Assembly (NCBI GenBank): GCA_018400015.1
Contig: JAGYNB010000001.1
Span: forward strand, 70,815 to 134,814
Reading direction: 5' to 3'
Source of the DNA: Candidatus Omnitrophota bacterium
GTDB lineage: Bacteria; Omnitrophota; Gorgyraeia; Gygaellales; Gygaellaceae
DNA length: 64,000 bases
In this document: piece by piece, positions 704 to 46,303 of the stretch
Numbering within the stretch: position 1 is the stretch's first letter
Layout: each line of letters opens with the position of its first letter
Notes under the pieces: generated by a model
The model's database searches: none
What the model was told of the DNA's origin: nothing
The model's input: only the letters and a program-made list of their open reading frames with translations
Made by a program: the position numbers and the translations under genes

Positions 704-1141
704 ATGAAGAAAATAATACTTATTTATATTTTCTTATTTATTATCTGTAATATTGGTTTTTCACAAGACGAGATATCTGTAACTGCCAAGGCCAGTAAGC
801 TTTCTATTGATATTAGCGAAGCTTTTACATTTATTATTAAAATCGAAGGTAGCTTTAAGCAAACTCCAAAAATTGAGATGCCCGAATTGATAGATTTTTC
901 TGTTTTGGCTAAAAATAATAGCAGCAGTTTTGTTTTAGTCAAGGGTGAAGCAAAAAGCGTAATAGAGATTGAATTAGTTTTAAAGGCAGTCAGAAACGGA
1001 GAATTGGAAATTCCCCAATGTATCGTTAGGCATAACGATAAAGTATATAAAACTGATTTAATAAAAATTACAGTTTCAGGCAAGATGCCTGCTTTGCCCA
1101 GTCAAGACCAAGCGCAAGATAAAGAGGAGATAACCCTCTGA
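704..1141 (+). CDS. Hypothetical secreted protein
   Basis: It has an N-terminal hydrophobic signal-like segment (MKKIILIYIFLFIICNIGFSQ). I recognised no catalytic motif. Its stop overlaps the next start (TGATG). Confidence 0.35.
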   Translation: MKKIILIYIFLFIICNIGFSQDEISVTAKASKLSIDISEAFTFIIKIEGSFKQTPKIEMPELIDFSVLAKNNSSSFVLVKGEAKSVIEIELVLKAVRNGELEIPQCIVRHNDKVYKTDLIKITVSGKMPALPSQDQAQDKEEITL

Positions 1142-2268
1142 TGATCGATAAAAAGCAGCTTGTTTTGCTTACTCAGAATCTAATCCGTATAAATTCTGAA
1201 AACCCGCCAGGGAATGAAAAAAAATGCGCTCTTTTGATAAGGAAGCATCTAAAAGATGCGGGGTTAAAAGTTGATCTTTACGAATTAAAAAGATTAAGGT
1301 CAAATGTTTTAGCTTATTATAATAGTCCGAAAAGTAAAAAAACCCTTCTTGTCACGGCTCATTTAGATACTGTACCAGCTGGTTCTGGTTGGAGGTTCAA
1401 TCCTTTTAAGGCAAAAATACACAAAAATAGAATTTATGGAAGAGGGGCTTCAGATTGTAAAGGTAATTTAGCCGCGCTCTTGGCCGCTGTAGTTTCTATT
1501 GCAAGAGATAAAGTAGACTTAGGATACAATTTATTATTCTTAGCTTCTAGCGACGAAGAAACAGGAAGCCATCTTGGAATTGTACCTTTATTGGAAAAGA
1601 AAATAATCAGACCTAACGCAGCAGTTATTTTAGACAGTGACGATTTTGGTATTATTACAGCTCAAAAAGGTCTGATTCATTTTAAAGTAAAGATTATTGG
1701 TAAAAAAGCACATGGTGCTTATCCTTATATGGGAGTAAATGCAATTGAGCTTGCCGGTAAAATTATTGTGGAGTTGAAGAAAATTAAATTAACTCACAAA
1801 AAGCACAATTTGTTAAAAGCTCCCACTATTAATATCGGGACTATTGCGGGCGGAGATAAAGTAAATATAGTGGCGGATTGGTGTGAGTTTAGCGTGGATT
1901 TGAGGTTTTTGCCTGGAATGGTCCCCAAACAGATTATTAAGAAAATAAGTAAAATTATTTCTCGCTATACAAAGTCTTTTGTGATAGAAATAGATGATTT
2001 ACAGTTTCCTTACGAGATAGATAATAAACATTTTTTAGTAAAACACTTGCTAAAGGTTTTAAAAGATTATAAAATAGTTTCGAAAATAAAAGGTTCTGAA
2101 GGGGCAACGGTTATAAGCTTTTTTCAGAAACAGGGAATCCCGGCTATTGCAACGGGCTTTAGTAATCCTAATACGATGCATATAAGCGATGAGTATATTG
2201 ATATAGAGAATTTGTATAAAGGGGCACTTGTTTTAGAAAGTTATTTTAAAAACCTATCATTTAAATGA
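1141..2268 (+). CDS. M20 family metallopeptidase (ArgE/DapE-like deacylase)
   Basis: It has the HLDTVP and GASDCKG metal-binding signatures typical of M20 peptidases, and the length fits at 375 aa. Confidence 0.7.
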   Translation: MIDKKQLVLLTQNLIRINSENPPGNEKKCALLIRKHLKDAGLKVDLYELKRLRSNVLAYYNSPKSKKTLLVTAHLDTVPAGSGWRFNPFKAKIHKNRIYGRGASDCKGNLAALLAAVVSIARDKVDLGYNLLFLASSDEETGSHLGIVPLLEKKIIRPNAAVILDSDDFGIITAQKGLIHFKVKIIGKKAHGAYPYMGVNAIELAGKIIVELKKIKLTHKKHNLLKAPTINIGTIAGGDKVNIVADWCEFSVDLRFLPGMVPKQIIKKISKIISRYTKSFVIEIDDLQFPYEIDNKHFLVKHLLKVLKDYKIVSKIKGSEGATVISFFQKQGIPAIATGFSNPNTMHISDEYIDIENLYKGALVLESYFKNLSFK

Positions 2269-3236
2269 AAAGTAAAATAAAGATCATCAAAAAACCGGCA
2301 TTGAAAAATCCCTATTTTATATGTGCCTGGCCAGGTATGGGTGAAGTTGCTTTTAAGGCAGCAAAATTTTTAGTAGATTATCTTAAGGCAGAAGAATTTG
2401 CTATTCTTGATGGAAGTGAGTTTTATTATCCATCAGGAGTAAAAATTGCTAATGGTATCATTAATCTTAATGAAATACCCTACAATAAGTTTTATTTTTT
2501 TAAGAATAAGTTTGGTGGTAGAGATATGATAATTTTTCTAAGCAATTCACAACCCGACTTATCAAAATATCATGAGTACACAGATTTTATATTTAGTTTT
2601 ATTACCCAGTTCAATCCGAAGCTTGTTTTAAGTTTTGCCGCTTTGCCTAGCCCTATTGAGCATATACAAAAACCGTCTCTGCATATTGCTGCAACAAGCG
2701 CAAAAGTACTGAAACTTTTTAAGAATATTGAGTTTAAAATCCTTAAAAATAACCAGATAAGCGGTATGAATGGTATGATAATTGGTATAGCAAAGAAGAA
2801 GAATTTACATGGTGCATGTATTTTGGCAGAGGTACCTCTTTATATGTCGAATATTTCAAATCCCAGAGCTTCCATGACGATAGTTGATATGCTCCAAAAG
2901 TTTGCAGGATTTAATGTAGATACTTATCCTTTGCAGGAAGAATCAAGAGTAATTGAAAGAGAAGTTAATAAGATAATCGATTATTTGAAATCTACTATTC
3001 AGCCAGAACCAATTTCCGAAGATGAGATCGAGCTTATCAAGGATTTACTGAATAAACAAACCAGGGTTCCTGATTCCATAAATAGTAGAATAGAAAGTCT
3101 GTTTAAGTTGGCTCAGCAGGATACTTTTAAGGCAGAAGAGTTAAAAGGGCTTCTTGATAAATGGAATATATACAAACAGTATGAAGATAGATTCTTGGAT
3201 TTGTTCAAGAAATCCGAGAAGAAAGATATGCATTGA
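2265..3236 (+). CDS. PAC2 (proteasome-assembly-chaperone-2-like) family protein
   Basis: The N-terminal region (PYFICAWPGMGEVA...) resembles bacterial and archaeal PAC2-family proteins. This is a family-level call only. Confidence 0.35.
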   Translation: MKSKIKIIKKPALKNPYFICAWPGMGEVAFKAAKFLVDYLKAEEFAILDGSEFYYPSGVKIANGIINLNEIPYNKFYFFKNKFGGRDMIIFLSNSQPDLSKYHEYTDFIFSFITQFNPKLVLSFAALPSPIEHIQKPSLHIAATSAKVLKLFKNIEFKILKNNQISGMNGMIIGIAKKKNLHGACILAEVPLYMSNISNPRASMTIVDMLQKFAGFNVDTYPLQEESRVIEREVNKIIDYLKSTIQPEPISEDEIELIKDLLNKQTRVPDSINSRIESLFKLAQQDTFKAEELKGLLDKWNIYKQYEDRFLDLFKKSEKKDMH

Positions 3237-3269
3237 TCCTGCTTTCTCACTTTCCTCGTTATCCTTACC

Positions 3270-3881
3270 ATGAACATAAAAGGTTTTTTATTCGATTTAG
3301 GTAATGTCTTGGTTGATTTCAATCATTATATCGCTGCTGGAAAGATAGCTGATTTATCGCGTTATGATAAAGACTATATATTTAATCTTTTTTTCGATTC
3401 TCCGATCACCGAAGCATTCGAAGAAGGGAGAATTTCTGCTCAAGATTTTTTTCAAGAGGTTAAAACTACGCTTTCATTGACTATAGGTTACGAAGAATTT
3501 ATAAAAATTTGGAATGGGATTTTCTATATTACTGATAAAAATAAAGCCTGTCTTAATTTTATAAAATTTATTAATCAAAAGTATCCTGTAGTTATGATAT
3601 CGAATATAAATATATTACACTATGAGTATATAAACAGAGAATTCGATATATTTGGTTATTTTGATAAATTGATTCTTTCTTTTGAGGTAAAATCAAGAAA
3701 ACCAAAGAGAGGGATTTATTTTAAGGCAGAGGAGTTTTTGCATGCATCTGCGCAGGAAATTATTTATGCCGATGATAGATCCGATTTAGTTAAGGCAGCA
3801 AAGGATATAGGGTACAATGCCTATATTTTCCAAGATATAGATAACTTTATGAAAGAAGATTTAGTGAAAAAGTATTTATGA
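3270..3881 (+). CDS. HAD superfamily (subfamily IA-like) hydrolase
   Basis: An N-terminal DxG motif (FLFDLGNVLVDF) is present, with a HAD-like core downstream. Confidence 0.55.
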   Translation: MNIKGFLFDLGNVLVDFNHYIAAGKIADLSRYDKDYIFNLFFDSPITEAFEEGRISAQDFFQEVKTTLSLTIGYEEFIKIWNGIFYITDKNKACLNFIKFINQKYPVVMISNINILHYEYINREFDIFGYFDKLILSFEVKSRKPKRGIYFKAEEFLHASAQEIIYADDRSDLVKAAKDIGYNAYIFQDIDNFMKEDLVKKYL

Positions 3882-4618
3882 AAAGAGTTTCTTTTGAAAA
3901 TAAATTTTACAGGGATTGGATTAAAGACAATTCTTTGTATAGAATTAATGTTGTTGAGAAAGAAACTGATCTTTTTATTCAGACGGATAAAAAAATCAAC
4001 AATGATTTAATTTTAAAGCTAGTTATCAATTATAGGGCTCAAATTCAAGATTATATAGACACACATAAAGATTTTCTCTATTCCCTTAAACCGTTAAAGG
4101 TAGAATCTAGAGCTCCTTCGATAGTTAAGCTCATGGCACGTAGCGCTAAGCTTTGCGATGTTGGACCAATGGCTTCTGTTGCTGGGGCAATAGCTGAATT
4201 TATCGGTAAAGAGCTTACGAAATTTGGCTGTAGGGAAGTTTTAATTGAAAACGGAGGAGACCTGTTTATAAAAACGAGTGTTGACAGAATGCTTGCAATT
4301 TATTCTTCTAACAAGAAGCTTAATAAGAAAATATTGTTGAATATTAATTCAAACGATTCTCCTTTGGGGGTTTGCGCTTCATCAGGAACAATAGGCCATT
4401 CTTTAAGTTTTGGCGAGGCTGATTGCGTGGTGATTTGCGCTGAAAATTCTGTTCTTGCCGATGCTGCTGCAACCTCAGCATGCAACATGATAAAATCAAA
4501 AAACGATTTATCTACTGCTATTGAAAAATCAAAAGCCACTAAAGGTATTAAAGGGATAGTGGCAATTATTGATAATAGTTTAGCTGCCTGGGGTAATATT
4601 GTTTTGTCGTCGGGATAA
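3878..4618 (+). CDS. UPF0280/ApbE-like family protein
   Basis: It is 246 aa, overlaps the previous stop, and has a GPMASVAG-type segment reminiscent of the UPF0280/ApbE-like fold. Support is weak. Confidence 0.3.
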   Translation: MKRVSFENKFYRDWIKDNSLYRINVVEKETDLFIQTDKKINNDLILKLVINYRAQIQDYIDTHKDFLYSLKPLKVESRAPSIVKLMARSAKLCDVGPMASVAGAIAEFIGKELTKFGCREVLIENGGDLFIKTSVDRMLAIYSSNKKLNKKILLNINSNDSPLGVCASSGTIGHSLSFGEADCVVICAENSVLADAAATSACNMIKSKNDLSTAIEKSKATKGIKGIVAIIDNSLAAWGNIVLSSG

Positions 4619-4643
4619 TCCAAAATCGAGATTTAAAAAAATC

Positions 4644-4672
4644 TTGACATCGCTTTTTAATTATGATAAAAA
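4644..4672 (+). promoter_or_regulatory. Sigma70-like promoter: TTGACA at 4644-4649, extended -10 TGaTAAAAA
   Basis: TTGACA is followed after about 14-17 bp by TGATAAAAA in the 147-bp gap before the ATP-grasp gene. A weak GGCC-centred hairpin with a T-run at about 4747-4760 lies just upstream of the ATG. Confidence 0.35.
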
Positions 4673-4765
4673 TAATTACATAAGTATTGAGGAAAAGAAG
4701 GAAAATTGAACAAAAATCGATTGCAGGAGGCCAAAAATAAAAGGCCTCTTTTTATTTAAATACCC

Positions 4766-5758
4766 ATGGTAAAAAAAATAGGTTTAACCTTTGATTTAAA
4801 GACCGATTATATACCTAAAGACTCAGATCCTCAGGATATCGTTGCCGAGCTTGATTCTGAAAGGACGATTGGAGAGATTTCTGCTGCGCTTGATGCGAAC
4901 GGGTACGAAGTAGAACTTATCGGAAACACAAAGAATTTACTTAAGAAACTTCCTGAATTGGGGGTGGATCTGGTTTTAAATATCGCCGAGGGTTATAGAG
5001 GGAGGAATAGAGAATCTCAGGTACCTATCCTGTTGGAGATGTTTGATATTCCTTTTATCGGTGCAGATGCCTTGACTTTAGGTTTGACTTTGGACAAGAC
5101 TTTGGCTAAAAAGGTATTTATTGCTGAAAATATTCCTACGCCTGATTTTTTTGAGGTAAATTCAGTTAATGAAGTCGGTAATGCAAATGATTATAAATTT
5201 CCTCTTTTTGTAAAGCCACGACATGAGGGTTCTTCCAAAGGTCTTACGGAAGCTTCCCGGGTTGTTGATATCGAGGGTTTAAAAAAACAAGTTAGGTTGG
5301 TAACTGAGGTTTACAAGCAGCCTGCTTTAGTCGAAGAGTTTATAAAAGGAAGGGAATTTACCGTAGCTATTATTGGTAATGATAATCCAGAGGTATTTCC
5401 TTCGGTTCAGGTTGAAATCGATAATGAAATAAATCTTGGGGATAAATTCTATACTTTTGCCAGAATTACATCCGATAGGCTTAAATATGTTTGTCCTGCA
5501 AAGATACCGGAAAGCCTCGAGAACAAATTAAGAGAATTTGCTTTAAGAGTTTACAGATCAGTTGGTTGCAGGGATTTCGGAAGGGTTGATTTTCGTGTTG
5601 ATGACCAAGACAGACCGTTTGTTTTGGAGATAAATCCTTTACCGATACTGTCCCATGAGGATACGTTTATGATTGTTGCGCAATATAAAAAAATAGGGTA
5701 TAATGGAATCATAAAAATGATAGTTGATGCAGCCATTAATAGATTAAATCTAAATTAA
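4766..5758 (+). CDS. ATP-grasp ligase of the D-alanine--D-alanine ligase family (extra paralog)
   Basis: It has Ddl-like motifs: a central ATP-grasp region (FVKPRHEGSSKG) and a C-terminal LEINPLPIL matching the EINTxPG region. It is not in a mur/fts context. Confidence 0.6.
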   Translation: MVKKIGLTFDLKTDYIPKDSDPQDIVAELDSERTIGEISAALDANGYEVELIGNTKNLLKKLPELGVDLVLNIAEGYRGRNRESQVPILLEMFDIPFIGADALTLGLTLDKTLAKKVFIAENIPTPDFFEVNSVNEVGNANDYKFPLFVKPRHEGSSKGLTEASRVVDIEGLKKQVRLVTEVYKQPALVEEFIKGREFTVAIIGNDNPEVFPSVQVEIDNEINLGDKFYTFARITSDRLKYVCPAKIPESLENKLREFALRVYRSVGCRDFGRVDFRVDDQDRPFVLEINPLPILSHEDTFMIVAQYKKIGYNGIIKMIVDAAINRLNLN

Positions 5759-5773
5759 AAGGAGAATAAATAA

Positions 5774-6985
5774 TTGGCTAACAACTCAACTGATACTTTA
5801 AGTAATACGGTTGATATTACCCAGGATATTGCTAAAAAATCTTCACAACAGCCTTCCAAAAATAAGCGTTTGTATTTTCCCATAGATTACAAACAGATAG
5901 AATTGTTTAAAGATGTTAATCCTTTAGAATGGGAAGATTGGCATTGGCAGATTAAAAACCGCATACGAAGAAAAGAAGAACTTCAGCAGTTAATTAATCT
6001 TACTTTTGAAGAAGAAAAAGGTTTAAAGCTTTCTGACAGCAGACTTTCTGTTGCCATTACTCCTTATTGGGCAACTATGATTGACCCGAATAATCCCAAG
6101 TGTCCGATTAGAAAGCAAATGGTTCCAGTGGCATCGGAATTTCAGGTTGGTAATCATGAGATGAGAGATCCCTGTGCAGAAGATAGAGATTCTCCCGCAC
6201 ATGGTTTGGTACATCGTTATCCGGATAGAGTATTGTTGTTAGCGACCGAACAGTGTGCTTCTTATTGCCGGCATTGTACGAGAAGACGCTTAGTGGGCGA
6301 AAAAAAAGAAATTCCCTCAGTTAATAAACTTGATGCTGCTTATGATTATATCCGCTCCAATAAAAAGATACGAGATGTATTGATCTCAGGAGGCGATCCT
6401 TTGATGCTCGAGGACGAGGCGCTGGAAAATATTTTTAAAAATATTCGTTCTATTTCACATGTGGAATTCTTGAGAATTGGAACAAGAGTTCCAGCTACTC
6501 TTCCTCAGAGAATAACAGAAAATTTATTGAAGATTTTCAAAAAATATGGTCCTATATGGATGAGCATTCATTTTAACCATCCTAAAGAAATTACTAAGCG
6601 TTGTCGTCAGGCATGTGAGATGCTCTCCGATGCCGGGATTCCTTTGGGCAGTCAGACAGTGTTGCTAAAAGATATAAACGATAAACCATTTGTTATGAGA
6701 AAGCTTTTTCATGATCTTTTAAAAATTAGGGTGCGTCCATATTATATCTATCAATGCGATCCTGTAAAGGGAACAGCACATTTTAGGACTCCTGTTGCTG
6801 TAGGAATCAATATAATTGAGAAATTAAGAGGTTATACTTCTGGATACGCTGTGCCGACATACGTTATTGATGCGCCTGGAGGAGGAGGCAAGATACCTAT
6901 CGGACCCAATTATATACTTTCTCAGGCAAAAGGAAGATATACTCTTCGTAATTATAAGGGTAAGATTTATACCTATCTGGAATAG
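5774..6985 (+). CDS. kamA: Lysine 2,3-aminomutase family radical SAM protein (KamA/EpmB family)
   Basis: It has a CASYCRHCTRRR radical-SAM cysteine triad in KamA-type context and is KamA-sized at 403 aa. The start is TTG at 5774, with an AAAAGGAG RBS 9 nt upstream. Confidence 0.7.
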   Translation: MANNSTDTLSNTVDITQDIAKKSSQQPSKNKRLYFPIDYKQIELFKDVNPLEWEDWHWQIKNRIRRKEELQQLINLTFEEEKGLKLSDSRLSVAITPYWATMIDPNNPKCPIRKQMVPVASEFQVGNHEMRDPCAEDRDSPAHGLVHRYPDRVLLLATEQCASYCRHCTRRRLVGEKKEIPSVNKLDAAYDYIRSNKKIRDVLISGGDPLMLEDEALENIFKNIRSISHVEFLRIGTRVPATLPQRITENLLKIFKKYGPIWMSIHFNHPKEITKRCRQACEMLSDAGIPLGSQTVLLKDINDKPFVMRKLFHDLLKIRVRPYYIYQCDPVKGTAHFRTPVAVGINIIEKLRGYTSGYAVPTYVIDAPGGGGKIPIGPNYILSQAKGRYTLRNYKGKIYTYLE

Positions 6986-7026
6986 ACTCAAATCAAATTA
7001 ATACCGGTTAAGTTAAGGAGTTGCAT

Positions 7027-8970
7027 ATGCTGGAAAATAAACGTAATTTCATTTTATTAGGGCATGCGCATTGTGGAAAAACTTCTTTAGCTGAAAGCCT
7101 TTTGTTTAACGCAAAAGCTACAACCCGCAAGGGAACCGTTGATGAAGGCAATACCGTATCTGATTATAACAGCGATGAGATAACGCGGAAAATATCTATA
7201 AGCGCGTCATTTCTGAACTTAAATTATAAAGATCATAATATTCAGATTATCGATGTTCCTGGATATGCTGATTTTGCCGGAGAAGCGGTTTCATGTGCGT
7301 ATGCAGTTGATGCCGCTGTTTTGGTTATCGATGCGGTTAATGGTGTTAGTGTAGGTACAGAATTCGCTTGGGATTTAACCGATAAATTAAGATTGCCAAG
7401 AATAGTTTTTATCAATAAGCTGGATAAGGAAAATACAAGTTTTGACAAAACATTAGAAGATATAAAGTCAGTTTTTGGTAATAAGTTTTTTGTTTTGGGA
7501 AAATTAGATGATCCGTCATTAATCGAAGTTGTTGCTGAAAGTGATGATAAGCTGCTGGAAAAATACCTTGATTCGGGCACGCTTTCTCAGGAAGAAGTAG
7601 CACATGGTTTAAGGGAAGCGATTGATAATGCAAAGTTATTTCCGGTAATAGGAGGCAGTGTAGCCGAAGATAAAGGAATAGGAGAGCTTCTGCAGGCAAT
7701 AGTGGATTATTTACCGTCGCCATTAGAAAGGCCGGAAATAGAAAAAAAGGCTGAAAGCGGAGAAATGATAAAGTTGGATTTAAATGATCAAAAGTTGTCC
7801 GCTTTTGTTTTTAAGAGTCTAATCGATCCTTATGTGGGGCAGCTGAGTATTATTAGAGTTTTTTCCGGGAGCCTAAAGGCCAACACCTCTTTTTATAATA
7901 TATCCAGGTCTTTGAAAGAAAGAATAGGTACAATTTATATAATGCAGGGTAAGGAACAAAAATCTATCGATGAAGCAACAGCCGGAGATATAATCGCTGT
8001 TGCAAAATTAAAGGATACGCATAGTGGAGATTCTCTTTCTGGCGACGACAAGGGGTTTATATTTATGCCGTTAGCATTTCCGGAATCAGCGATATCTTTT
8101 TCTGTTAAGCCAAAATCACGCGAAGACGAAGAAAAGATTTCCGGAGCCTTGGCAAAGCTTGCCAATGAGGATCCTACATTTAACGTGGGTAGAGACCCGC
8201 AGACTAAGGAATTAATCATTTCCGGGCTTGGTGACTTGCATCTTGAAGTAATGATTTCACGGCTTAAAGAAAGATTTAAAGTCGAAGTTGAATTAGGGAC
8301 GCCTAAGATTCCTTATAAAGAAACAATTAGAAAAAGTGCTAAGGCCCAAGGTAAATATAAAAAACAATCCGGAGGAAGAGGCCAATATGGAGATGTTTGG
8401 CTTGAGATTAAACCGCTTGGGCGAGGCGGGGGATTTGAGTTTGAAGATAAGATTTTTGGAGGAGCGATTCCGAAAAATTACGTTCCGTCAGTTGAAAAAG
8501 GTGTTCGTCAAACAATGGCTCAAGGAGTTGTGGCAGGTTGTCCTGTGGAGGATATAAAAGTAATTGTATATGATGGCTCATATCATCCGGTAGATTCTTC
8601 TGATATGGCCTTTCAGATTGCCGGCCGGATGGCTTTTAGAAAGGCAGTTCAAGATTCAGGACCGGTTCTTTTAGAGCCGATTATGGATGTAGAAATTTCC
8701 ATTCCGGAGGATTTCCTGGGACAGATTTCCGGGGATATAAACTCCCGTAGAGGTAGAGTTATGGGCATGGAAGTAAAAGGAAAGACTCAAATAGTAAAGG
8801 CTAAAGTTCCTTTATCCGAAATGTTCAAATATGCAAACGATCTTCGCTCTATGACCGGAGGAAGAGGTTCTTATGTTATGCGATTTTCTTCCTATGAAGA
8901 AGTTCCTTCCCGGGTTGCCTCAACGATTATTGATAATTACCAAAAGACCCAGAAACATGAAGAAGAATAG
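7027..8970 (+). CDS. Divergent translational GTPase of the EF-G / ribosomal-protection (Tet(M)/Tet(O)-like) superfamily
   Basis: The G1 motif is GHAHCGKTS, G3 is DVPGYADF and G4 is NKLD. EF-G-like domains follow (DPYVGQLSIIRVFSG). It is about 647 aa, shorter than the ~700 aa of EF-G and close to RPP size. I prefer the ATG at 7027 (RBS AAGGAG 6 nt upstream) over the TTG at 7021. Confidence 0.65.
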   Translation: MLENKRNFILLGHAHCGKTSLAESLLFNAKATTRKGTVDEGNTVSDYNSDEITRKISISASFLNLNYKDHNIQIIDVPGYADFAGEAVSCAYAVDAAVLVIDAVNGVSVGTEFAWDLTDKLRLPRIVFINKLDKENTSFDKTLEDIKSVFGNKFFVLGKLDDPSLIEVVAESDDKLLEKYLDSGTLSQEEVAHGLREAIDNAKLFPVIGGSVAEDKGIGELLQAIVDYLPSPLERPEIEKKAESGEMIKLDLNDQKLSAFVFKSLIDPYVGQLSIIRVFSGSLKANTSFYNISRSLKERIGTIYIMQGKEQKSIDEATAGDIIAVAKLKDTHSGDSLSGDDKGFIFMPLAFPESAISFSVKPKSREDEEKISGALAKLANEDPTFNVGRDPQTKELIISGLGDLHLEVMISRLKERFKVEVELGTPKIPYKETIRKSAKAQGKYKKQSGGRGQYGDVWLEIKPLGRGGGFEFEDKIFGGAIPKNYVPSVEKGVRQTMAQGVVAGCPVEDIKVIVYDGSYHPVDSSDMAFQIAGRMAFRKAVQDSGPVLLEPIMDVEISIPEDFLGQISGDINSRRGRVMGMEVKGKTQIVKAKVPLSEMFKYANDLRSMTGGRGSYVMRFSSYEEVPSRVASTIIDNYQKTQKHEEE

Positions 8971-8981
8971 GGGCTATAACG

Positions 8982-9677
8982 ATGATTAAAGTTTCTGTTT
9001 TCGGCTTAGATTGTCCTGTTGGTAGAATAAAGGTTAAAGACCAGCGTTTGGATAGAATAAAAGAGCTTTATAGCGCTTCTAAGAAAACCTATCTTGAGCT
9101 GGAGGTAGTTTCTCAAGATAAGGCTGCGCAAAGTGACGGTTTAGTTGTTTTAAAAGATAATAAACTTGATGTAATCATTGTTGATCTGGAGATTATTGAT
9201 AAAAGATTAGTCAGTCCGCAGGAAGAAGAAAAAAACCTTCTTTTGTCTCTGAAAAAGAATTTAGAAGAAGAAAAGTTTATTAATCAGATTAAAATTAGCG
9301 ATTCCGAAAAAGATCTTTTAAGACAGTATCCCTTATTAAGCAATAAGCCCATATTTACAGTAGAAACATTCGAAGAAGACATGCAGAAGGTGCTATTTGA
9401 TGCATATTACCATTTTGGATTTATGAATTTTTTTACTGCCGGTCCGAAAGAAGCCAGGGCTTGGAGCGTAGAAAAAGATATTACCGCATACGAAGCCAGC
9501 GGTTGCATTCATTCTGATATTCAAAAAGGGTTTATTAAGGCAGAGGTATTAGCTTATGATGATCTTGAAAAAAGCGGTTCTTTCAATAATGCCCGTTCAC
9601 AAAACTTGGTACGTTTAGAAAACAGGGATTATGTAGTCAAAGATGCCGATATTATAACTTTTCGGTTTAATAAATAA
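8982..9677 (+). CDS. YchF-like protein lacking the N-terminal P-loop G domain (helical and TGS domains only)
   Basis: The C-terminus (FFTAGPKEARAW...IHSDIQKGFIKAEV...YVVKDADIITFRFN) matches the YchF TGS region (FFTAGPKEVRAW...IHTDFEKGFIRAEV...YIVQDGDVMHFRFN). There is no GxxxxGKS/T anywhere. It is 231 aa against about 363 for YchF. Confidence 0.55.
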   Translation: MIKVSVFGLDCPVGRIKVKDQRLDRIKELYSASKKTYLELEVVSQDKAAQSDGLVVLKDNKLDVIIVDLEIIDKRLVSPQEEEKNLLLSLKKNLEEEKFINQIKISDSEKDLLRQYPLLSNKPIFTVETFEEDMQKVLFDAYYHFGFMNFFTAGPKEARAWSVEKDITAYEASGCIHSDIQKGFIKAEVLAYDDLEKSGSFNNARSQNLVRLENRDYVVKDADIITFRFNK

Positions 9678-9681
9678 AACA

Positions 9682-11244
9682 ATGCAAAGAATAAAAAGAG
9701 CATTAATCAGTGTTTACGATAAGACCGGTATAGTTGAATTTGCAAAAGGCTTGGTTGAGCTTGGGGTGGAGATAGTTTCAACAGGGGGAACGGCCAAGAT
9801 ATTAAATCAAGCCGGAATCAAAATAGTTGAGATTTCCGACTATACATCTTTTCCGGAAATGCTTGACGGAAGAGTAAAGACCTTGCATCCTAAGATCTAT
9901 GCAGGGTTACTTGCCGTAAGAGACAACACAGAGCATTTAACACAGCTTGAAAGACAAGGAATCGGTTTTATTGATATGGTGGTGGTGAATTTGTATCCTT
10001 TTGTTAAGACCCTTGCAAAAAAAGGTGTTAGCGAAGATGAAATAATCGAGAATATCGATATAGGCGGTCCATGTATGTTAAGAGCGGCAGCCAAGAATTA
10101 CGCTTCGGTTGCAGTTGTAAGTGATTGGCGTAGGTATAAGGGAATACTTAACGAACTAAAAACTAATGGTTGTAGGTTGCCGATTGGGACTTTAACTTGC
10201 TTAGCATGTGAAACATTTCAGTTAACTAAAAGCTACGATCAGGCTATTTTTGATTACTTTACTTCGAAAACAAAAGAAGATAAAGATGTTTTCCCTCAGC
10301 AGATCAATCTTGTGCTTAAGAAAGTAAGAGATTTGCGCTATGGGGAAAATCCGCATCAGAAGGCATCGGTTTATTCGTCTATAGACAAGACTCGCAGTCT
10401 ATTTGATGCAAAGCAGTTACACGGCAAAGAACTTTCTTTTAATAATATTCTTGATTTATCAAGCGCAATAGGGCTCTTGAGGGAGTTTGAAAAACCAGCA
10501 GCAGTTGTGTTAAAGCATAATAATGCCTGTGGATCCGCAGAGGATAAGCTTTTACATAGAGCATATCTTCATGCATGGGGTTGCGATAAATTATCTGCCT
10601 TTGGAGGCGTAGTTGGTTTTAACCGAAAAGTTGATTTTAATACAGCGAGGTTTATTTCTCAAAGCGGATTCCTGGAATGCATTATTGCTCCCGGATTTGA
10701 TAAAAAAGCGTTAGCAATATTGACAAAGAAGAAAAACCTAAGAATTATAGAGTTGAGCGAAAAGTTTTTGTTTTCTAAAGATAAAGATTTTGATATGCGT
10801 AGTGTATCCGGTGCATATTTGGTGCAGGAAAAAGACAATATAGACATAATAAAAGGTTCTTTAAAAGTGGTTACCAAGTGTAAACCTACTAAGGTTCAGA
10901 TGGAATCATTATTATTTGCCTGGAAGGTAGTAAAGCACATAAAATCCAATGCTATCGTCTTGGCCAAAGGAACAAAAACTGTTGGCATAGGCGCAGGACA
11001 AATGAGCAGAGTGGAATCAGTTGATATTGCCTGTAAGAAAGCAGGTAAAGTGAATACTAAGAATTCCTGCCTTGCGTCCGATGCATTTTTCCCAAAGGAA
11101 GATTCGATAAAAAAAGCTGCCCGCGCAGGAATAAAAGCGATAATTCAGCCAGGCGGTTCCATTGCTGATAAAATCATTATAGATTCGTGTGACAGGCATA
11201 AGATTGCCATGGTTTTTACCAACATAAGGCATTTTCGTCATTAA
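9682..11244 (+). CDS. purH: Bifunctional AICAR transformylase / IMP cyclohydrolase
   Basis: It has an MGS-like N-terminus (ISVYDKTG...STGGTAKIL) and an AICARFT domain, at the expected 520 aa. Confidence 0.9.
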   Translation: MQRIKRALISVYDKTGIVEFAKGLVELGVEIVSTGGTAKILNQAGIKIVEISDYTSFPEMLDGRVKTLHPKIYAGLLAVRDNTEHLTQLERQGIGFIDMVVVNLYPFVKTLAKKGVSEDEIIENIDIGGPCMLRAAAKNYASVAVVSDWRRYKGILNELKTNGCRLPIGTLTCLACETFQLTKSYDQAIFDYFTSKTKEDKDVFPQQINLVLKKVRDLRYGENPHQKASVYSSIDKTRSLFDAKQLHGKELSFNNILDLSSAIGLLREFEKPAAVVLKHNNACGSAEDKLLHRAYLHAWGCDKLSAFGGVVGFNRKVDFNTARFISQSGFLECIIAPGFDKKALAILTKKKNLRIIELSEKFLFSKDKDFDMRSVSGAYLVQEKDNIDIIKGSLKVVTKCKPTKVQMESLLFAWKVVKHIKSNAIVLAKGTKTVGIGAGQMSRVESVDIACKKAGKVNTKNSCLASDAFFPKEDSIKKAARAGIKAIIQPGGSIADKIIIDSCDRHKIAMVFTNIRHFRH

Positions 11245-11262
11245 TTATTTCTGCTGTTAACA

Positions 11263-12579
11263 ATGACCTACCGAGACAGCCTTCTATATTTTAATACATT
11301 TATAAATTACGAAAGAATTTTAATCCGTAAGAAAAAAGTTCCTTATAAACTTCAACGCTTCAGGGAATTTCTAGTTTTTTTAGGCAATCCCCAAGAAAGT
11401 TTATGTTTCATTCATGTTGCCGGTTCAAAAGGTAAAGGTTCGGTTTGCGCTTTTGTCGCTAATATTTTGCAAAACGCAGGTTTTAAAACTGGGCTTTATA
11501 CCTCTCCGCATTTAGTAGATATAAGAGAAAGGATAAGAATACTAATTCCTGGAGAAAACGATATCAACGATCCTTTTAACGGCATAATCAGAAAAAAGGA
11601 ATTTGTAGATTTGATAGGTTCGCTTAAACCTAAAATAGAGCGGTTTTGCGCAAGTTGCAAATACGGAAGGATTTCATTCTTCGAGCTTCTTACAGCAATG
11701 GCTTTTATTTATTTTAAACAAAAAAATGTCGATTTTGCGGTTATTGAAACAGGCTTAGGCGGAAGGCTTGATGCTACGAATATAATTAAACCGTTTGTTA
11801 GCGTGATTACCCCGATTAGCTATGAGCACACGAATATATTAGGAAAGACATTAGAGAAAATCGCAGCTGAAAAATCAGCGATAATCAAAAATAGATCATT
11901 TGCTGTATGTGTTGATAAACCAAAAAAGGCATTAACAATTATAAAACAAAGATGTAAAAAGATGTATTCAAGATTGATTATTGTAAATAAGGATATTTTG
12001 TTCAAAGGTAAAACAGATAACTTTTATATAGAGGGAACATTGCGTAGTTATAAAAATCTAAAGATTCGGCTTTTGGGTAATCATCAGCTTGTTAATGCTA
12101 GTTTGTCCGTTGGCGCAATAGAATTTCTTATTGGGCAAGGAGTTAATATTAGTCTTGATAACATAAGAAGAGGTTTATATAATACTATTTGGCCCGGCAG
12201 GTGCGAAATTATACAAGAAAAACCCAAAGTTGTTTTAGACGGAGCACAAAATTCCGCTTCGGTTAAGGCACTGGTAAATACCATCCATGAAAATTATAAG
12301 TTTTCTCAAGTTATACTTGTATTGGGGATTTCGCTTGATAAAGATATTGTCGGTATATGCAGATGTTTAGATAAGATAGCTGATAAAATAATTTTGACTT
12401 GTGCGGATAACCCTAGAGCAACGCCGCCAAAAGAATTAGAGAAGTATTTTAATAAAAAAGAAGTATTCTTAACTGCTAATGTAAAACAGGCGCGTAAAAT
12501 AGCCTTAGAACTGGCTAAGCCTAAGGATTTGGTTTTGGTTACCGGTTCATTATTTGTTGTAGGTGAATACAGAAAATGA
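11263..12579 (+). CDS. folC: Folylpolyglutamate synthase / dihydrofolate synthase
   Basis: It has a Mur-ligase P-loop (HVAGSKGKGS) and FolC-type length and organisation. Confidence 0.75.
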   Translation: MTYRDSLLYFNTFINYERILIRKKKVPYKLQRFREFLVFLGNPQESLCFIHVAGSKGKGSVCAFVANILQNAGFKTGLYTSPHLVDIRERIRILIPGENDINDPFNGIIRKKEFVDLIGSLKPKIERFCASCKYGRISFFELLTAMAFIYFKQKNVDFAVIETGLGGRLDATNIIKPFVSVITPISYEHTNILGKTLEKIAAEKSAIIKNRSFAVCVDKPKKALTIIKQRCKKMYSRLIIVNKDILFKGKTDNFYIEGTLRSYKNLKIRLLGNHQLVNASLSVGAIEFLIGQGVNISLDNIRRGLYNTIWPGRCEIIQEKPKVVLDGAQNSASVKALVNTIHENYKFSQVILVLGISLDKDIVGICRCLDKIADKIILTCADNPRATPPKELEKYFNKKEVFLTANVKQARKIALELAKPKDLVLVTGSLFVVGEYRK

Positions 12580-13964
12580 AAAAAACTCAACAGACTATAG
12601 CTGCGATTTCCACCTCAACCGTTGCTTCTGGGGTTGGCATCGTGCGTATTAGCGGCCCTAAAGCCTTTAGCGTTGCCGCTAAGATATTTTTTCCTAGCAA
12701 AAAAGAAAAATTCGCTAAACTAAAAACACATACGATTAACCACGGCTGGATTATTGATAAGCTAAATAATAAATACCAGCGGATTGATGAGGTTATGGTT
12801 ATTAAAATGGACGCACCCAATACTTATACAAAAGAAGATACGGTGGAGATCGATTGTCACGGTGGGATTGTGGTTTTGCGCAAAGTATTAGAATTAGCAC
12901 TTAAATATGGCTGTCGCATGGCTGAGCCAGGAGAGTTTACTAAAAGAGCATTTTTAAATGGTAGAATCGATTTAGCCCAGGCAGAAGCGGTTATCGATAT
13001 TATTAAAGCAAAGACAGATAAGGCATTAGGTATTAGTACGCAGCAGCTAAAGGGGGAGCTGTCAAAAGAAATCCGTGCAATCAGAAATATCTTTCTTGAA
13101 GTAATTACTTTTTTTGAAGCAAATATTGATTTTCCCGATGAAGAAATCGGCCGGCTGAATCTTTCCGAGATAGAGAGGTTATTAACAAAGGCTTATTTGA
13201 AGGTCAAGAATCTGATTGATTCTTCCGTTAGAGGTAAAGTTTTAAGAGAAGGTATTCATGTAGTTATTTGCGGTAGGCCAAATGTGGGAAAATCATCTTT
13301 ATTAAATGCATTATTAAAACAGGAACGTTGTATTGTAACTCATATTCCCGGAACAACCAGGGATACGGTTGAAGAGATAATCGATATTAAAGGAGTCCCT
13401 GTAAGAATTGTAGATACCGCAGGTATTCTTGAGCCAAAAGATCTTGTAGAGAAAAAAGCTATTCAACGTTCCAGAGAGCAGATTGATCTGGCTGATCTGG
13501 TAATTTTAATGTTTGATGCAAATAAAAAGCTTTCTTGCGGCGATAAATTGCTTATCCATAGATTAAAGAATAAAAATTGCCTGGCGGTAGTAAATAAAAT
13601 TGACTTAAAAAGAAATATCAATATTGATTTTATTAAAAGTGAATTTAAACATGTTATCGAAATTTCTGCAAAGCAGGTTAAAAACATAAATCTTTTAGAA
13701 AAAGAAATCGTTAAGTTTGCATATGGCGAGAATAGAAATAACGAGGAAAATGTTCTTATTAGCAATAAAAGACATATAGAAAAAATTAATAATTCTTTTG
13801 TTTTGTTGGAGGATGCGATTAGTTATGTAAAATCAGCTGGTAATCCCGAATTAGTCGCACAAAATTTAAAAGAAGCTTTGGGCTGTTTGGATGATATAAT
13901 AGGTGAAAGGTTCTCAGAAGAGATTTTAGATAGAATATTTAGTGAGTTTTGTATAGGAAAATAA
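12576..13964 (+). CDS. mnmE: tRNA modification GTPase MnmE
   Basis: It has a G domain (GRPNVGKSS) and the C-terminal CIGK motif diagnostic of MnmE/TrmE. Confidence 0.9.
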   Translation: MKKTQQTIAAISTSTVASGVGIVRISGPKAFSVAAKIFFPSKKEKFAKLKTHTINHGWIIDKLNNKYQRIDEVMVIKMDAPNTYTKEDTVEIDCHGGIVVLRKVLELALKYGCRMAEPGEFTKRAFLNGRIDLAQAEAVIDIIKAKTDKALGISTQQLKGELSKEIRAIRNIFLEVITFFEANIDFPDEEIGRLNLSEIERLLTKAYLKVKNLIDSSVRGKVLREGIHVVICGRPNVGKSSLLNALLKQERCIVTHIPGTTRDTVEEIIDIKGVPVRIVDTAGILEPKDLVEKKAIQRSREQIDLADLVILMFDANKKLSCGDKLLIHRLKNKNCLAVVNKIDLKRNINIDFIKSEFKHVIEISAKQVKNINLLEKEIVKFAYGENRNNEENVLISNKRHIEKINNSFVLLEDAISYVKSAGNPELVAQNLKEALGCLDDIIGERFSEEILDRIFSEFCIGK

Positions 13965-13976
13965 TCTAGGAGAGTC

Positions 13977-14537
13977 ATGATTCAGAAGAAAAAAATAGAA
14001 AAAGCTGTAAGAGAAATTCTTAGTGCAATCGGAGAAAATCCAAAAAGAAAGGATTTATTGAAAACGCCTGAACGTGTAGCTCTGATGTATGAGGAGATTT
14101 TCTCGGGAATTAAAAAAGATCCCAAAAAAGAGCTAGAGGTATTATTGGATCAGAAACATGACGAGATAGTTCTTTTAAAGAATATTCCTATATATTCAGT
14201 ATGTGAGCATCATCTTCTGCCTTTTTTCGGCAAAGCAAATATTGCCTATATCCCTAAACAAGGAAGAGTAACTGGATTAAGTAAACTTGCGCGTGTAGTA
14301 GATATACTCTGCAGTAGGCCACAGGTACAGGAACGTCTTACAACCCAGGTTGCCGATATAATTATGGATAAACTTAAGCCTTTGGGAGTGATGGTTGTTA
14401 TTGAAGCAGAGCATTTGTGTATGTCCATGAGGGGGGTCAAGAAGCCCGGGACGTGTACGGTTACGTCCGCTGTTCGGGGGGTTTTTAAGAAAAATGAGAA
14501 AACTCGCTTTGAAACCCTTTCTTTGATCGGAAAATGA
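13977..14537 (+). CDS. folE: GTP cyclohydrolase I
   Basis: The CEHHLLPF active-site motif is present and the length is 186 aa. Confidence 0.9.
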
Positions 14538-25494: not shown

Positions 25495-26421
25495 ATGGAT
25501 AATTCTAAGATAAAGGACTTATTAGATAATATTGAGAAAGTCATCGTCGGTAAGACCGAGAAAATAAAGTTTTTGATCACAGGGCTTCTTACCAATAGCC
25601 ATGTTTTGATTGAGGATGTTCCCGGTCTTGGCAAGACAATGCTTGCCTTATCATTATCTAAGTCAGTATCGGGAAAATTCAAAAGAATTCAGTTTACCCC
25701 GGATTTATTGCCTTCGGATGTTACCGGAGGTTATGTTTATAATCCTAAGTCTGGCGAGTTTGACTTCAGAGAAGGCCCGATATTCGCCAATATCGTTTTA
25801 TCCGATGAAATCAATAGAACAACACCTAGAACTCAGTCAGCGTTATTAGAATGTATGCAGGAATATAAAGCTACAATCGACGGAAAAACATTTATACTTC
25901 CTCAGCCCTTTATGGTTATTGCTACGCAAAACCCCATTGAGTACCAAGGTACTTATCCACTTCCTGAAGCGCAGGTGGATAGATTTTTAATGAAAATTAA
26001 TATGGGTTATCCTACCGAAGAAGAAGAGGTAAAGGTTATATCAGGTCAAAAGCAGGTTCATCCAGTGGAGACTCTTAGTGCGGTAATGAGTTTAGAAGAA
26101 GTGGTTAAACTTCAGGAGGAAGTTAAAAGAGTACAGGTTATGCCAAATATTTTAAACTATATCGTAAAGATAATTTCACTTACCAGAAAAAGAGATGATA
26201 TCAAAGTAGGCGCCAGCCCCAGGGCATCGATATCTTTGATGAAAGCAAGCTGTGCTTGGGCTTTTATTGAGGGAAGAGATTATGTTATTCCTGATGATGT
26301 CACTAAACTTGCCACTTGGATACTTCAGCATAGGATAAGTCTTGAACCAAAGTCACTTATCGTAGGCAAAACCGCAGAAATGGTGATAGCGGAAATCATT
26401 AAAGAGATACCTATTCCTTAA
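25495..26421 (+). CDS. moxR: MoxR-family AAA+ ATPase
   Basis: It has Walker A (DVPGLGKT), Walker B (LSDEINR), and MoxR-typical length and order. Confidence 0.85.
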   Translation: MDNSKIKDLLDNIEKVIVGKTEKIKFLITGLLTNSHVLIEDVPGLGKTMLALSLSKSVSGKFKRIQFTPDLLPSDVTGGYVYNPKSGEFDFREGPIFANIVLSDEINRTTPRTQSALLECMQEYKATIDGKTFILPQPFMVIATQNPIEYQGTYPLPEAQVDRFLMKINMGYPTEEEEVKVISGQKQVHPVETLSAVMSLEEVVKLQEEVKRVQVMPNILNYIVKIISLTRKRDDIKVGASPRASISLMKASCAWAFIEGRDYVIPDDVTKLATWILQHRISLEPKSLIVGKTAEMVIAEIIKEIPIP

Positions 26422-30747: not shown

Positions 30748-30749
30748 AA

Positions 30750-44804: not shown

Positions 44805-44821
44805 CTTTAAGGAGGAAAAAG

Positions 44822-46282: not shown

Positions 46283-46303
46283 GCTTTAACAAAAATAATT
46301 GAT

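Follow-up and report, generated by a model that had tools for sequence, protein, structure and literature searches.

Control region and genes at the locus

The stretch of DNA analysed here (the window, 64,000 nucleotides (nt) long) comes from a Candidatus Omnitrophota genome near Ca. Gygaella obscura, in which the window's ATP-grasp ligase has its nearest ortholog, at 82% identity. Omnitrophota are ultra-small and probably host-dependent bacteria. Our subject is a pair of adjacent genes in this window, encoding an ATP-grasp ligase and a KamA-family lysine 2,3-aminomutase, together with the control region in front of them and the two genes behind them, which encode a paralog of elongation factor G (EF-G) and a protein derived from the GTPase YchF. 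These features are listed below, with protein lengths in amino acids (aa).

4636-4673, + strand: sigma-70-type promoter, conserved, made up of an A-tract, the -35 box TTGACA (4644-4649) and ATTATGATAAAAAT, which carries the -10 region
4689-4724, + strand: leader segment homologous, by alignment, to the motif GGAGG-N12-14-(T)AAATTGGAAAAA
4725-4757, + strand: hairpin resembling an intrinsic terminator, AGGAGGCC, a 10-nt loop and GGCCTCTT, followed by TTTTTATTT (sequence scan and RNA fold)
4766-5758, + strand: ATP-grasp ligase, 330 aa (the 'grasp1' ortholog)
5774-6985, + strand: KamA lysine 2,3-aminomutase, 403 aa, TTG start with AGGAG 9 nt upstream
7021/7027-8970, + strand: EF-G paralog, 647 aa from the ATG at 7027, AGGAG 6 nt upstream
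8982-9677, + strand: YchF-derived DUF933 protein, 231 aa

A preliminary description of this DNA had drawn the same four open reading frames (ORFs), and the families it had named agree with the curated Pfam and NCBIfam models, which were applied with their cut-offs; structure matches were obtained by sequence search of the PDB. The four genes had been described as a promoter-headed quartet. A unit does begin here, behind a conserved promoter, but its four-gene extent did not hold, as the unit runs on through purH, folC and mnmE to folE. The gaps from the ligase gene through folE measure 15, 41, 11, 4, 18, -4 and 12 nt and are followed by one of 380 nt. Since these gaps lie between -4 and 41 nt and all the genes are co-directional, the predicted unit comprises eight genes up to position 14537, and the quartet is an arbitrary cut.

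The TTGACA box had likewise been pointed out before, and comparison with relatives bears it out. A consensus scan gave TTGACA-18-AAAAAT at this site, and CTTGACA together with the TGATAAAAA block (TGAT(A/T)AAA) is invariant among the window, Gygaella and the distant locus L009. When 69 distinct orthologous upstream regions were compared, 67 had TTGACA and the -10 region at the same relative position, with the pattern AAAAAAT(a)CTTGACAA, about 12 nt, aTATTGTGrTAAAAAA. In this AT-rich region promoter-like hexamer pairs are no more frequent than chance predicts (41 counted, 47 expected), and the call holds because the TTGACA box and the -10 region are conserved in the orthologs despite this lack of enrichment. 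The weak A/T hairpin said to precede the promoter (AGATTT..AAATCT, 4628-4643) does exist, but as a hairpin it is not conserved. In orthologous promoters (L007-L085), the -10 box and the probable start of transcription are flanked by an inverted repeat, ATATTGT(G)...(C)ACAATAT, with 18-20 nt between its arms. It is seen for example in L020 at about 7845-7900 and is weaker in the window (4655-4688). This repeat may serve as an operator for a repressor, but only 21 of 67 upstream regions have it in perfect form over 7 nt or more.

Between the promoter and the ligase ATG lies a GC-rich hairpin with a T-run, which the preliminary description had missed. Its stem spans 4725-4750 and the T-run extends to 4757, ending 8 nt before the start codon of the ATP-grasp gene; the fold has -14.3 kcal/mol and z = -2.0. 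Upstream of the hairpin, GAGGA (4689-4693) is followed by AAATTGAAC with a TTG at 4706, and a mini-ORF running from this TTG to the TAA at 4757-4759 (MNKNRLQEAKNKRPLFI) spans the hairpin and has its stop 6 nt ahead of the ligase ATG. In the relatives the order is GGAGG, 12-14 nt, (T)AAATTGGAAAAA, about 15-30 nt, the hairpin with its T-run, and then the ligase start 5-95 nt further on. An nhmmer profile of the leader matched 81 loci, once in each and in every case immediately ahead of the first ATP-grasp gene, and found no match elsewhere in the 2.1 Mb searched. The window's own copy is too divergent to reach E<0.01 in nhmmer and was assigned by alignment only.

An equivalent hairpin and T-run were present in all 43 distinct motif-bearing leaders that were compared. 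Within the terminator helix 83% of the cells are paired, 7 of the 10 pairs show compensatory changes on both sides, and the covariation score exceeded those of 500 out of 500 shuffles and of all slid controls. The hairpin is thus a predicted intrinsic terminator and a candidate attenuator. In 42 of the 43 leaders, an ORF of 3-11 codons (MEKIG, MEK, MKK etc.) starts from the TTG and ends no more than 13 nt from the hairpin base; the third codon of this mini-ORF (MEK..) is usually Lys. A riboswitch was also considered for the leader and set aside, because no Rfam family matches it even at E<=5 and the terminator is its one conserved structure. Promoter, leader and terminator form a previously undescribed element that is specific to the ATP-grasp/KamA operon and conserved phylum-wide (loci L007-L085; in L020, for example, at 7830-8003).

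An ATP-grasp ligase paired with a lysine 2,3-aminomutase

To place the pair among its relatives, we scanned one genome per GTDB species with the ligase alignment, which gave 513 relatives, and compared the best 80 of these 513 loci. Of the Omnitrophota counts given below, that of 70 refers to the loci that were long enough for the test. All but one of the best 80 are labelled Omnitrophota or Planctomycetales, and ligase orthologs occur by the hundreds at 60-82% identity, almost all of them labelled Candidatus Omnitrophota. The kamA gene directly follows the ATP-grasp gene or genes in 70 of 70 testable Omnitrophota loci, so the adjacency, proposed earlier as a point to check, is fully kept. Most relatives have two paralogous ligase genes in front of kamA, and their frames overlap or abut, the median gap being 0 nt between grasp1 and grasp2 and -4 nt between grasp2 and kamA. 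The second ligase gene is missing solely in the lineage of the window (the window itself, the Gygaella loci L004 and L005, and L009), in which grasp2 was lost.

The ligase matches the Pfam family Dala_Dala_lig_C (PF07478) with 120.9 bits (6.7e-35), and its nearest characterised family is Ddl (PDB E = 7e-29). It nevertheless falls below the cut-off of all 25 Ddl and Van models listed, scoring at best 174.4 against 243 for NF002378 and 154.2 against 245.65 for TIGR01205. The residues that serve ATP and Mg binding and catalysis (equivalents of DdlB K144, R255, D257, E270 and N272, mapped by hand) are invariant in both paralogs, and grasp2, which is 40% identical to grasp1, has the same catalytic and family-specific motifs. 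On the substrate side the family departs from Ddl. The N-terminal motifs GLT[YF]DLK and NI[AS]EGxxGRxRESxVP replace the Ddl motifs GGxSxEREVS and HGxxGEDG. In DdlB numbering, we take Glu15, Ser150 and Tyr216 to form the triad and Gly276, Ser281 and Leu282 to hold the carboxylate of D-Ala2. By hand mapping, G276 corresponds to I294 in the window (Ser in most orthologs), S281 to an invariant D299, Y216 to I234 and K215 to R233. The ortholog alignment further shows an invariant Glu just before the invariant Asp where Ddl has its carboxylate-binding Ser281 region. We infer that this acidic pair would suit a cationic substrate such as beta-lysine, and the protein is a probable beta-lysine amide ligase.

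That a Ddl-like ligase should lie outside any cell-wall context had been remarked on before, and this agrees with the missed Ddl cut-offs and with the window, where Pfam found no mur, dcw, ddl, fusA, ychF, efp or epmA gene among the scanned ORFs; a paralog search found no second copy of the ligase, kamA, EF-G or YchF-like gene in the 64 kb either. A role in the cell envelope would mean that the ligase adds beta-lysine, in a side chain or cross-bridge, to a peptidoglycan precursor, or that it is the Ddl of the phylum and stands beside kamA by accident. There is a precedent for the first version in Aslfm, an ATP-grasp D-aspartate ligase that acts in this way with a partner racemase. Ddl is by far the closest characterised family, the conservation of the ligase is of a housekeeping kind, and K01921 (Ddl) has been reported in 176 of 176 complete Omnitrophota genomes, the gene being unspecified (preprint 10.64898/2026.06.07.730766). 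Against these points stand the scores below all Ddl models, the replaced D-Ala2 carboxylate residues in the hand alignment, the window without mur or dcw genes, the loss of the second paralog in the window's lineage, and the fusion of this family to KamA beside GNAT, MFS and S51 genes elsewhere. We regard a cell-envelope role as distinctly unlikely.

The aminomutase carries the Pfam domains LAM_C and Radical_SAM and aligns over residues 41-403 with the lysine 2,3-aminomutase (LAM) of Clostridium subterminale (2A5H; 476 bits). Its CASYCRHC segment aligns with CSMYCRHC, the CxxxCxxC motif being kept, and its GGGGK with the motif of Lys337, which binds pyridoxal phosphate (PLP), in 2A5H. The alignment also places YIYQCD and VIDAPGGGGK at Asp293 and Asp330, both of which are kept. 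These two residues bind the epsilon-ammonium group of lysine in LAM and are replaced in the glutamate enzyme; the literature searched had nothing on Asp293/Asp330 or on aminomutases of Omnitrophota. Against the AblA model TIGR03820 the protein scores 523.0 with a cut-off of 525.4, ending at model position 360 of 417, and the shortfall of 2.4 bits arises because the C-terminal ~49 residues are missing. The subfamily model TIGR00238 is passed (354 against 199), whereas the EpmB model TIGR03821 is not (237 against 369.3). Glutamate 2,3-aminomutase and arginine 2,3-aminomutase were considered as well and rejected on low model scores (470 against 650 and 390 against 600, respectively) and on the retained Asp pair. 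From the residues and the model scores we therefore assign the protein to the lysine-type AblA/LAM enzymes and not to EpmB, in line with the earlier naming of a KamA-family aminomutase.

For a wider view of the ligase family, an exhaustive homolog search was made over cluster representatives (one per 50%-identity cluster), and 885 clusters were found at E<=1e-30. Many members are tandem double-ligase fusions of about 650-720 aa, found in Halobacteriovorax and other Bdellovibrionota, in Desulfoluna limicola and in Haliangiales. Among the 150 best ligase representatives, three are fused to KamA, and both domain orders occur; a search seeded with one of these fusions gave about 40 clusters of KamA::ligase or ligase::KamA proteins (716-880 aa), including Desulfoferrobacter and Syntrophobacteraceae DRH4. 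The two genes are separate in Omnitrophota; in Desulfobacterota and other lineages they are fused. We read eight neighbourhoods outside Omnitrophota, namely five loci with KamA fusions (716-826 aa) and three with double ligases (668-695 aa), the latter three forming one set from Desulfoluna limicola, Halobacteriovorax and a metagenome-assembled genome of Haliangiales.

L089, 8001-11963: KamA::ligase; second ligase, GNAT
L172, 6001-11872: KamA::ligase; second ligase, 761-aa deacetylase-GNAT fusion
L091, 8001-12666: KamA::ligase; MFS transporter, second ligase, with a GNAT nearby
L090, 2341-5196: ligase::KamA; Peptidase_S51
L173, 3912-8193: ligase::KamA; Peptidase_S51
L086, 8001-11107: double ligase, then Peptidase_S58, no KamA
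L087, 8001-11127: double ligase, then Peptidase_S58, no KamA
L088, 8001-11242: double ligase, then Peptidase_S58, no KamA

The ligase::KamA type is accompanied by the S51 peptidase and by a protein of ~432 aa. The Peptidase_S58 gene comes immediately after the double-ligase gene in all three contexts, and this arrangement looks like a second uncharacterised ligase/peptidase pair. Peptidase_S58 includes the DmpA/BapA beta-aminopeptidases. In the literature searched, no publication brings together an ATP-grasp ligase and either a KamA-type aminomutase or beta-lysine.

The fusions in both orders, the overlapping or abutting frames and the recurring partners from small-molecule metabolism are the reasons for which we propose that the ligase or ligases and KamA probably work together in a single pathway whose product is a peptide containing beta-lysine. 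Were there no functional link, the two enzymes would belong to unrelated pathways and their adjacency would be inherited synteny, much as the block from the M20 gene to folE keeps its order across the phylum though its functions are mixed. The many independent KamA::ligase and ligase::KamA fusions outside the phylum speak against this, as do the overlapping or abutting frames of the pair and the dedicated, conserved promoter and leader that head exactly these genes. We find such an absence of any link scarcely credible.

It is also conceivable that the product is a polymer, with two ligases building a cyanophycin-like polyamide of beta-lysine as a store of nitrogen or cations and S51, S58 or M20 peptidases degrading it. 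Two catalytically intact ligase paralogs, unfused or fused in tandem, are the rule, a cyanophycinase-family S51 peptidase stands beside ligase::KamA and a Peptidase_S58 follows the double ligases, and cyanophycin synthetase itself extends its chain with an ATP-grasp domain. Yet Ddl-type enzymes are dipeptide ligases, and a primer-binding or Mur-ligase-like domain is absent here; the GNAT and MFS partners suggest a small, exportable and N-capped molecule, and the S51 peptidase resembles cyanophycinase only weakly, scoring 45 bits where the cut-off is 127. We judge a polymer unlikely.

The EF-G paralog, the YchF derivative and neighbouring genes

The preliminary description had emphasised the non-canonical G1 (GHAHCGKTS) and G3 (DVPGYADF) motifs of the EF-G paralog, and both are present in the sequence, together with RKISI as G2. 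It had also found an N-terminal ESLLFN segment closer to the Tet(M)-type ribosomal protection proteins (RPPs). This Tet(M)-like segment is there, but the RPP-like label does not extend to the protein, which as a whole is an EF-G: all five EF-G domains are recognised by Pfam, the EF-G subfamily model NF009381 gives 863 bits, and in the PDB the Thermus thermophilus EF-G scores 575 bits, EF-G-2 458 and TetM/TetO 209-221. The RPP models remain far from their cut-offs (NF012153, 357.6 against 775; Tet(M), 210 against 1420), and the domain IV motifs QSGGRGQYG and GSYHxVDSS, which are invariant in the orthologs, are of the EF-G type; an RPP assignment was rejected.

For the G domain alone the best PDB match is 1WDT (EF-G-2), with GHAGSGKTT and DAPGYGDF. 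A Tyr in G3 stands in place of the catalytic His, and a Ser in G2 in place of Thr. The EFG II class has been defined by GHxxxGKT in G1, xxxSx in G2 and DxPG in G3 (PMC3150367), and RKISI fits the xxxSx pattern of that definition. The acidic G' region has been reported as conserved in EFG II (PMC3150367). In the window the G' insert, a part of the protein that contacts L7/L12, is ~44 residues shorter, residues 141-165 of the query aligning with EF-G 143-211. All 41 Omnitrophota orthologs are of ~650 aa and have DxPGY. The window gene lies outside the str operon. In a metagenome scan with the EF-G alignment, to whose listed matches the following figures apply, rpsL-rpsG stood directly upstream of fusA at 28 of 31 DxPGH loci, while none of ~35 DxPGY (Tyr-type) loci lay in a str operon, and at least 7 close relatives of the window EF-G were found. 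Two metagenome loci, L097 (3459-5507) and L098 (4873-6786), encode EF-Gs that are 53-57% identical to that of the window, with DSPGYADF and DTPGYMDF, and have no kamA or YchF-like neighbour, so the adjacency of EF-G and YchF-like genes is not universal even among fairly close relatives. Its sequence places the protein in a known class of paralogs, EFG II (Thermus EF-G-2 type), and it has a deletion specific to its lineage. An EF-G that is the only one in its genome is stated to be EFG I without exception (PMC3150367), and another EF-G is therefore to be expected in the genome of the window.

The fourth protein had been described as a YchF homolog that retains the helical and TGS domains without a G domain, and profile alignment agrees. 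Pfam recognises only YchF-GTPase_C (PF06071; residues 148-230, 112.7 bits), and TIGR00092 is missed (117 against 279). In a profile of 17 orthologs, positions 61-132 match residues 129-209 of Haemophilus influenzae YchF (helical domain, domain E = 7e-5) and positions 148-232 match YchF 278-362 (TGS domain, E = 2.6e-32 against 1JAL). No P-loop, G3 or NxxE G4 was found in this profile, and there is a weak, non-significant match to YchF 41-62 alone. The orthologs carry the NCBI name 'DUF933 domain-containing protein', and the gene occurs in nearly all examined Omnitrophota loci independently of EF-G. It encodes a phylum-wide, YchF-derived DUF933 protein that has lost its nucleotide-binding motifs.

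The remaining genes of the conserved neighbourhood are as follows.

1141-4618, + strand: upstream unit of M20 (ArgE/DapE family) deacylase, PAC2, HAD hydrolase and UPF0280/AbpE-like genes, ending before the promoter (context)
1141-2268, + strand: M20 deacylase (Pfam/NCBIfam)
2265-4618, + strand: PAC2-family (proteasome-assembly-chaperone-like), HAD hydrolase and UPF0280/AbpE-like genes, between the M20 gene and the promoter
9682-14537, + strand: purH, folC, mnmE and folE (ORFs; Pfam labels taken from relatives)

Across Omnitrophota the order is M20–PAC2–HAD–UPF0280/AbpE, then ATP-grasp1–(ATP-grasp2)–KamA, then (EF-G)–YchF-like–purH–folC–mnmE(–folE). It is kept through mnmE, with folE next in the relatives whose gene tables were read. 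The products of purH, folC, mnmE and folE all, we assume, use or make folate cofactors or relate to one-carbon metabolism. The PAC2–HAD–UPF0280 block is syntenic in most Omnitrophota loci, and 46 of 62 loci have an M20 gene within the 6 kb that precede the ligase. The M20 deacylase had been noted before and is indeed present, but its tie to the ligase/KamA pair is merely possible, because it belongs to a separate unit and its synteny is confined to Omnitrophota; the M20, PAC2, HAD and UPF0280 families are not listed in the five KamA-fusion contexts outside the phylum. One might speculate that M20 acts as a recycling peptidase, the counterpart of S51 and S58 elsewhere.

In 39 of 67 Omnitrophota loci an EF-G gene stands between kamA and the YchF-like gene; the other 28 lack it at this position. 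Where it is present it always abuts the YchF-like gene, even in loci that have genes inserted after kamA (L007, L040, L074, L078 and L084), the median gap there being 8 nt. The four genes had been taken together as one system, and this did not stand, since EF-G is missing from its position in so many loci and has other genes between it and kamA in several more. That the pair stands beside EF-G and the YchF derivative is a matter of synteny at the level of the phylum, and the region is best read as a set of independent modules lying side by side in a block of genes that keeps its order throughout Omnitrophota.

These observations bear on a second role that had been offered for the pair, the beta-lysylation of a translation factor, be it the EF-G paralog, the YchF-like protein or elongation factor P (EF-P), after the manner of EpmA/EpmB. 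What supports it is adjacency alone, in the window and in the 39 related loci, and the fact that EpmB is also of the KamA family. Besides the loci in which EF-G is absent or separated from kamA, none of the eight contexts in other phyla, the KamA fusions included, has a translation-factor gene (EF-G, YchF or EF-P), the aminomutase scores 523 bits as AblA against 237 as EpmB, the window is without efp and epmA, and the known EF-P ligase is a paralog of the aminoacyl-tRNA synthetases, not an ATP-grasp enzyme. We consider this role highly improbable, and the earlier suggestion is not supported.

Some further observations concern the window at large. Nearly all ORFs between 1 and 64000 are on the + strand, and the GC skew stays positive over the whole length. 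Only about one third of the genes are preceded by a Shine-Dalgarno sequence that can be recognised as such (AGGAG or GGAGG at 4-9 nt). Two large ORFs (1026 and 720 aa; 27667-32912) have no Pfam match; the genes just before them encode a MoxR-type AAA ATPase (25495-26421) and a DUF58 protein (26426-27670). At 43149-47759 there are a PNP/UDP-family phosphorylase, an IF-2B-family protein, a B12-binding radical SAM protein, a 159-aa ORF and a class II aldolase, and three of these families resemble the methionine-salvage enzymes MtnP, MtnA and MtnB.

A proposed beta-lysine pathway and its known counterparts

Our best explanation, to which we incline without great assurance, is that the pair makes a small beta-lysine peptide, with EF-G/YchF and purH-folC-mnmE-folE as separate modules. 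A beta-lysine-containing small molecule had been one of the options of the preliminary description, and judged by the gene fusions and contexts it fits best. In the first module (4636-6985), the promoter and the leader ending in the terminator would control the Ddl-like ligase and the lysine 2,3-aminomutase. KamA would turn L-lysine into beta-lysine, as its conserved active-site residues suggest, and the ligase, working like Ddl through an acyl-phosphate intermediate, would join beta-lysine to an amino acid or to a second beta-lysine, as the fusions and the gene context suggest. In the window the product would be a beta-lysine dipeptide, and relatives with two ligases might make a tripeptide; most likely it serves as a cytoplasmic solute or a nitrogen-rich cation. 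Other phyla may attach an N-acetyl group to it, export it or recycle it with peptidases dedicated to the task. Premature termination at the leader hairpin probably determines the level of expression, and a factor acting on the unstructured, GGA-rich leader would relieve it. This could be a ribosome on the mini-ORF, which could prevent the terminator from forming, or an RNA-binding protein, an alternative that we include because the leader is rich in GGA motifs. The second module would consist of the EFG II-type EF-G and the YchF derivative as ribosome-associated accessory proteins unlinked to beta-lysine chemistry, and the third of purH-folC-mnmE-folE.

Several points weigh against this explanation. 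The whole 15-kb block is syntenic in Omnitrophota, so adjacency there is weak evidence, and the argument rests on the fusions and the eight contexts outside the phylum. Fusion calls in metagenomes may include artefacts of assembly or gene calling, although many clusters, and an isolate-type assembly as well, contain such fusions. A structural role, in the cell wall for instance, would likewise be compatible with tight regulation and with conservation across the phylum of a housekeeping kind (60-65% identity). As for the leader, its folds revealed no antiterminator or other conserved structure besides the terminator, the spacing of 12-14 nt from GGAGG to TTG is atypical when compared with 4-9 nt at real genes of the window, and AT-rich sequence can be expected to contain a short ORF by chance.

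A broader proposition, put forward tentatively and one on which we would stop just short of a positive verdict, is that KamA with one or two ligases constitutes a widespread uncharacterised pathway to N-capped di- or tripeptides or a short polyamide, with turnover by S51, S58 or M20 peptidases. It would be a core trait of Omnitrophota, and its leader may sense lysine through the Lys-codon mini-ORF or an RNA-binding protein. The known fates of beta-lysine are N-acetylation to an osmolyte, attachment to EF-P, fermentation, and antibiotic assembly of the non-ribosomal peptide synthetase (NRPS) type. If the proposed pathway is real, an ATP-grasp route leading to amides of beta-lysine would add one more, and a function would be at hand for a large family (the 885 clusters) now annotated 'D-alanine--D-alanine ligase' or 'ATP-grasp domain-containing protein'. 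The former annotation could inflate peptidoglycan gene counts in poorly known phyla. The leader is among the most conserved non-coding elements seen in these genomes and the pair is conserved at housekeeping level; with such conservation behind a conserved element, the product of the pair is likely to matter for the physiology of Omnitrophota. The EF-G and YchF parts are ordinary by comparison, a known paralog class and a DUF933 protein, though a YchF without a P-loop that is kept across a phylum is a small puzzle for the study of ribosome-associated factors.

Among known systems, EFG II, and in particular EF-G-2 of Thermus thermophilus (1WDT, 2DY1), shares with the window EF-G the motifs GHAxxGKT[ST] and DxPGY, the G2 Ser and a location outside the str operon. 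It differs in its G' region, which in the window is shorter by the ~44 residues mentioned, and domains II-V of the window protein are nearer to EF-G1 (575 against 458 bits). The YchF-like protein aligns to YchF structures, as in YchF/Ola1, through its helical domain and C-terminal TGS domain, but it is ~130 residues shorter, without P-loop, G3 and NxxE G4, and does not reach the curated cut-off.

The ligase has the fold and the ATP/Mg catalytic residues of Ddl, its best match in PDB and Pfam, and differs in scoring below all curated cut-offs, in its altered substrate motifs and in a gene context free of cell-wall genes. With Aslfm it shares an operon that joins a ligase with the enzyme making its unusual amino-acid substrate. 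The aminomutase lacks the C-terminal ~49 residues of clostridial LAM.

EpmA, EpmB and EF-P offer a parallel in that a KamA-family enzyme feeds beta-lysine to an ATP-dependent ligase. The differences are that the EpmB cut-off is not reached here, that the ligase is an ATP-grasp enzyme and not a lysyl-tRNA-synthetase paralog, that no efp or epmA gene lies in the window, and that homologs of the pair in other phyla adjoin small-molecule enzymes. In AblA/AblB, a lysine 2,3-aminomutase and a beta-lysine N-epsilon-acetyltransferase make the osmolyte N-epsilon-acetyl-beta-lysine. The likeness is an AblA-like aminomutase in an operon with an enzyme predicted to derivatise beta-lysine, and some relatives also have a GNAT gene. 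Here, however, the partner is one or two Ddl-like ligases instead of a GNAT, the window has no acetyltransferase, and the expected product is an amide-linked peptide in place of an acetylated amino acid.

Two further analogies are drawn at the level of the superfamily. In the synthesis of N-acetylglutaminylglutamine amide (NAGGN) by Ngg, an ATP-grasp ligase makes a dipeptide solute with the help of a GNAT, and in the cyanophycin synthetase/cyanophycinase system an ATP-grasp enzyme builds a polyamide store that an S51 peptidase accompanies. Both work without a beta-amino acid, in contrast to the pathway proposed here, and the accessory families of both, GNAT and S51, also adjoin homologs of the window pair.

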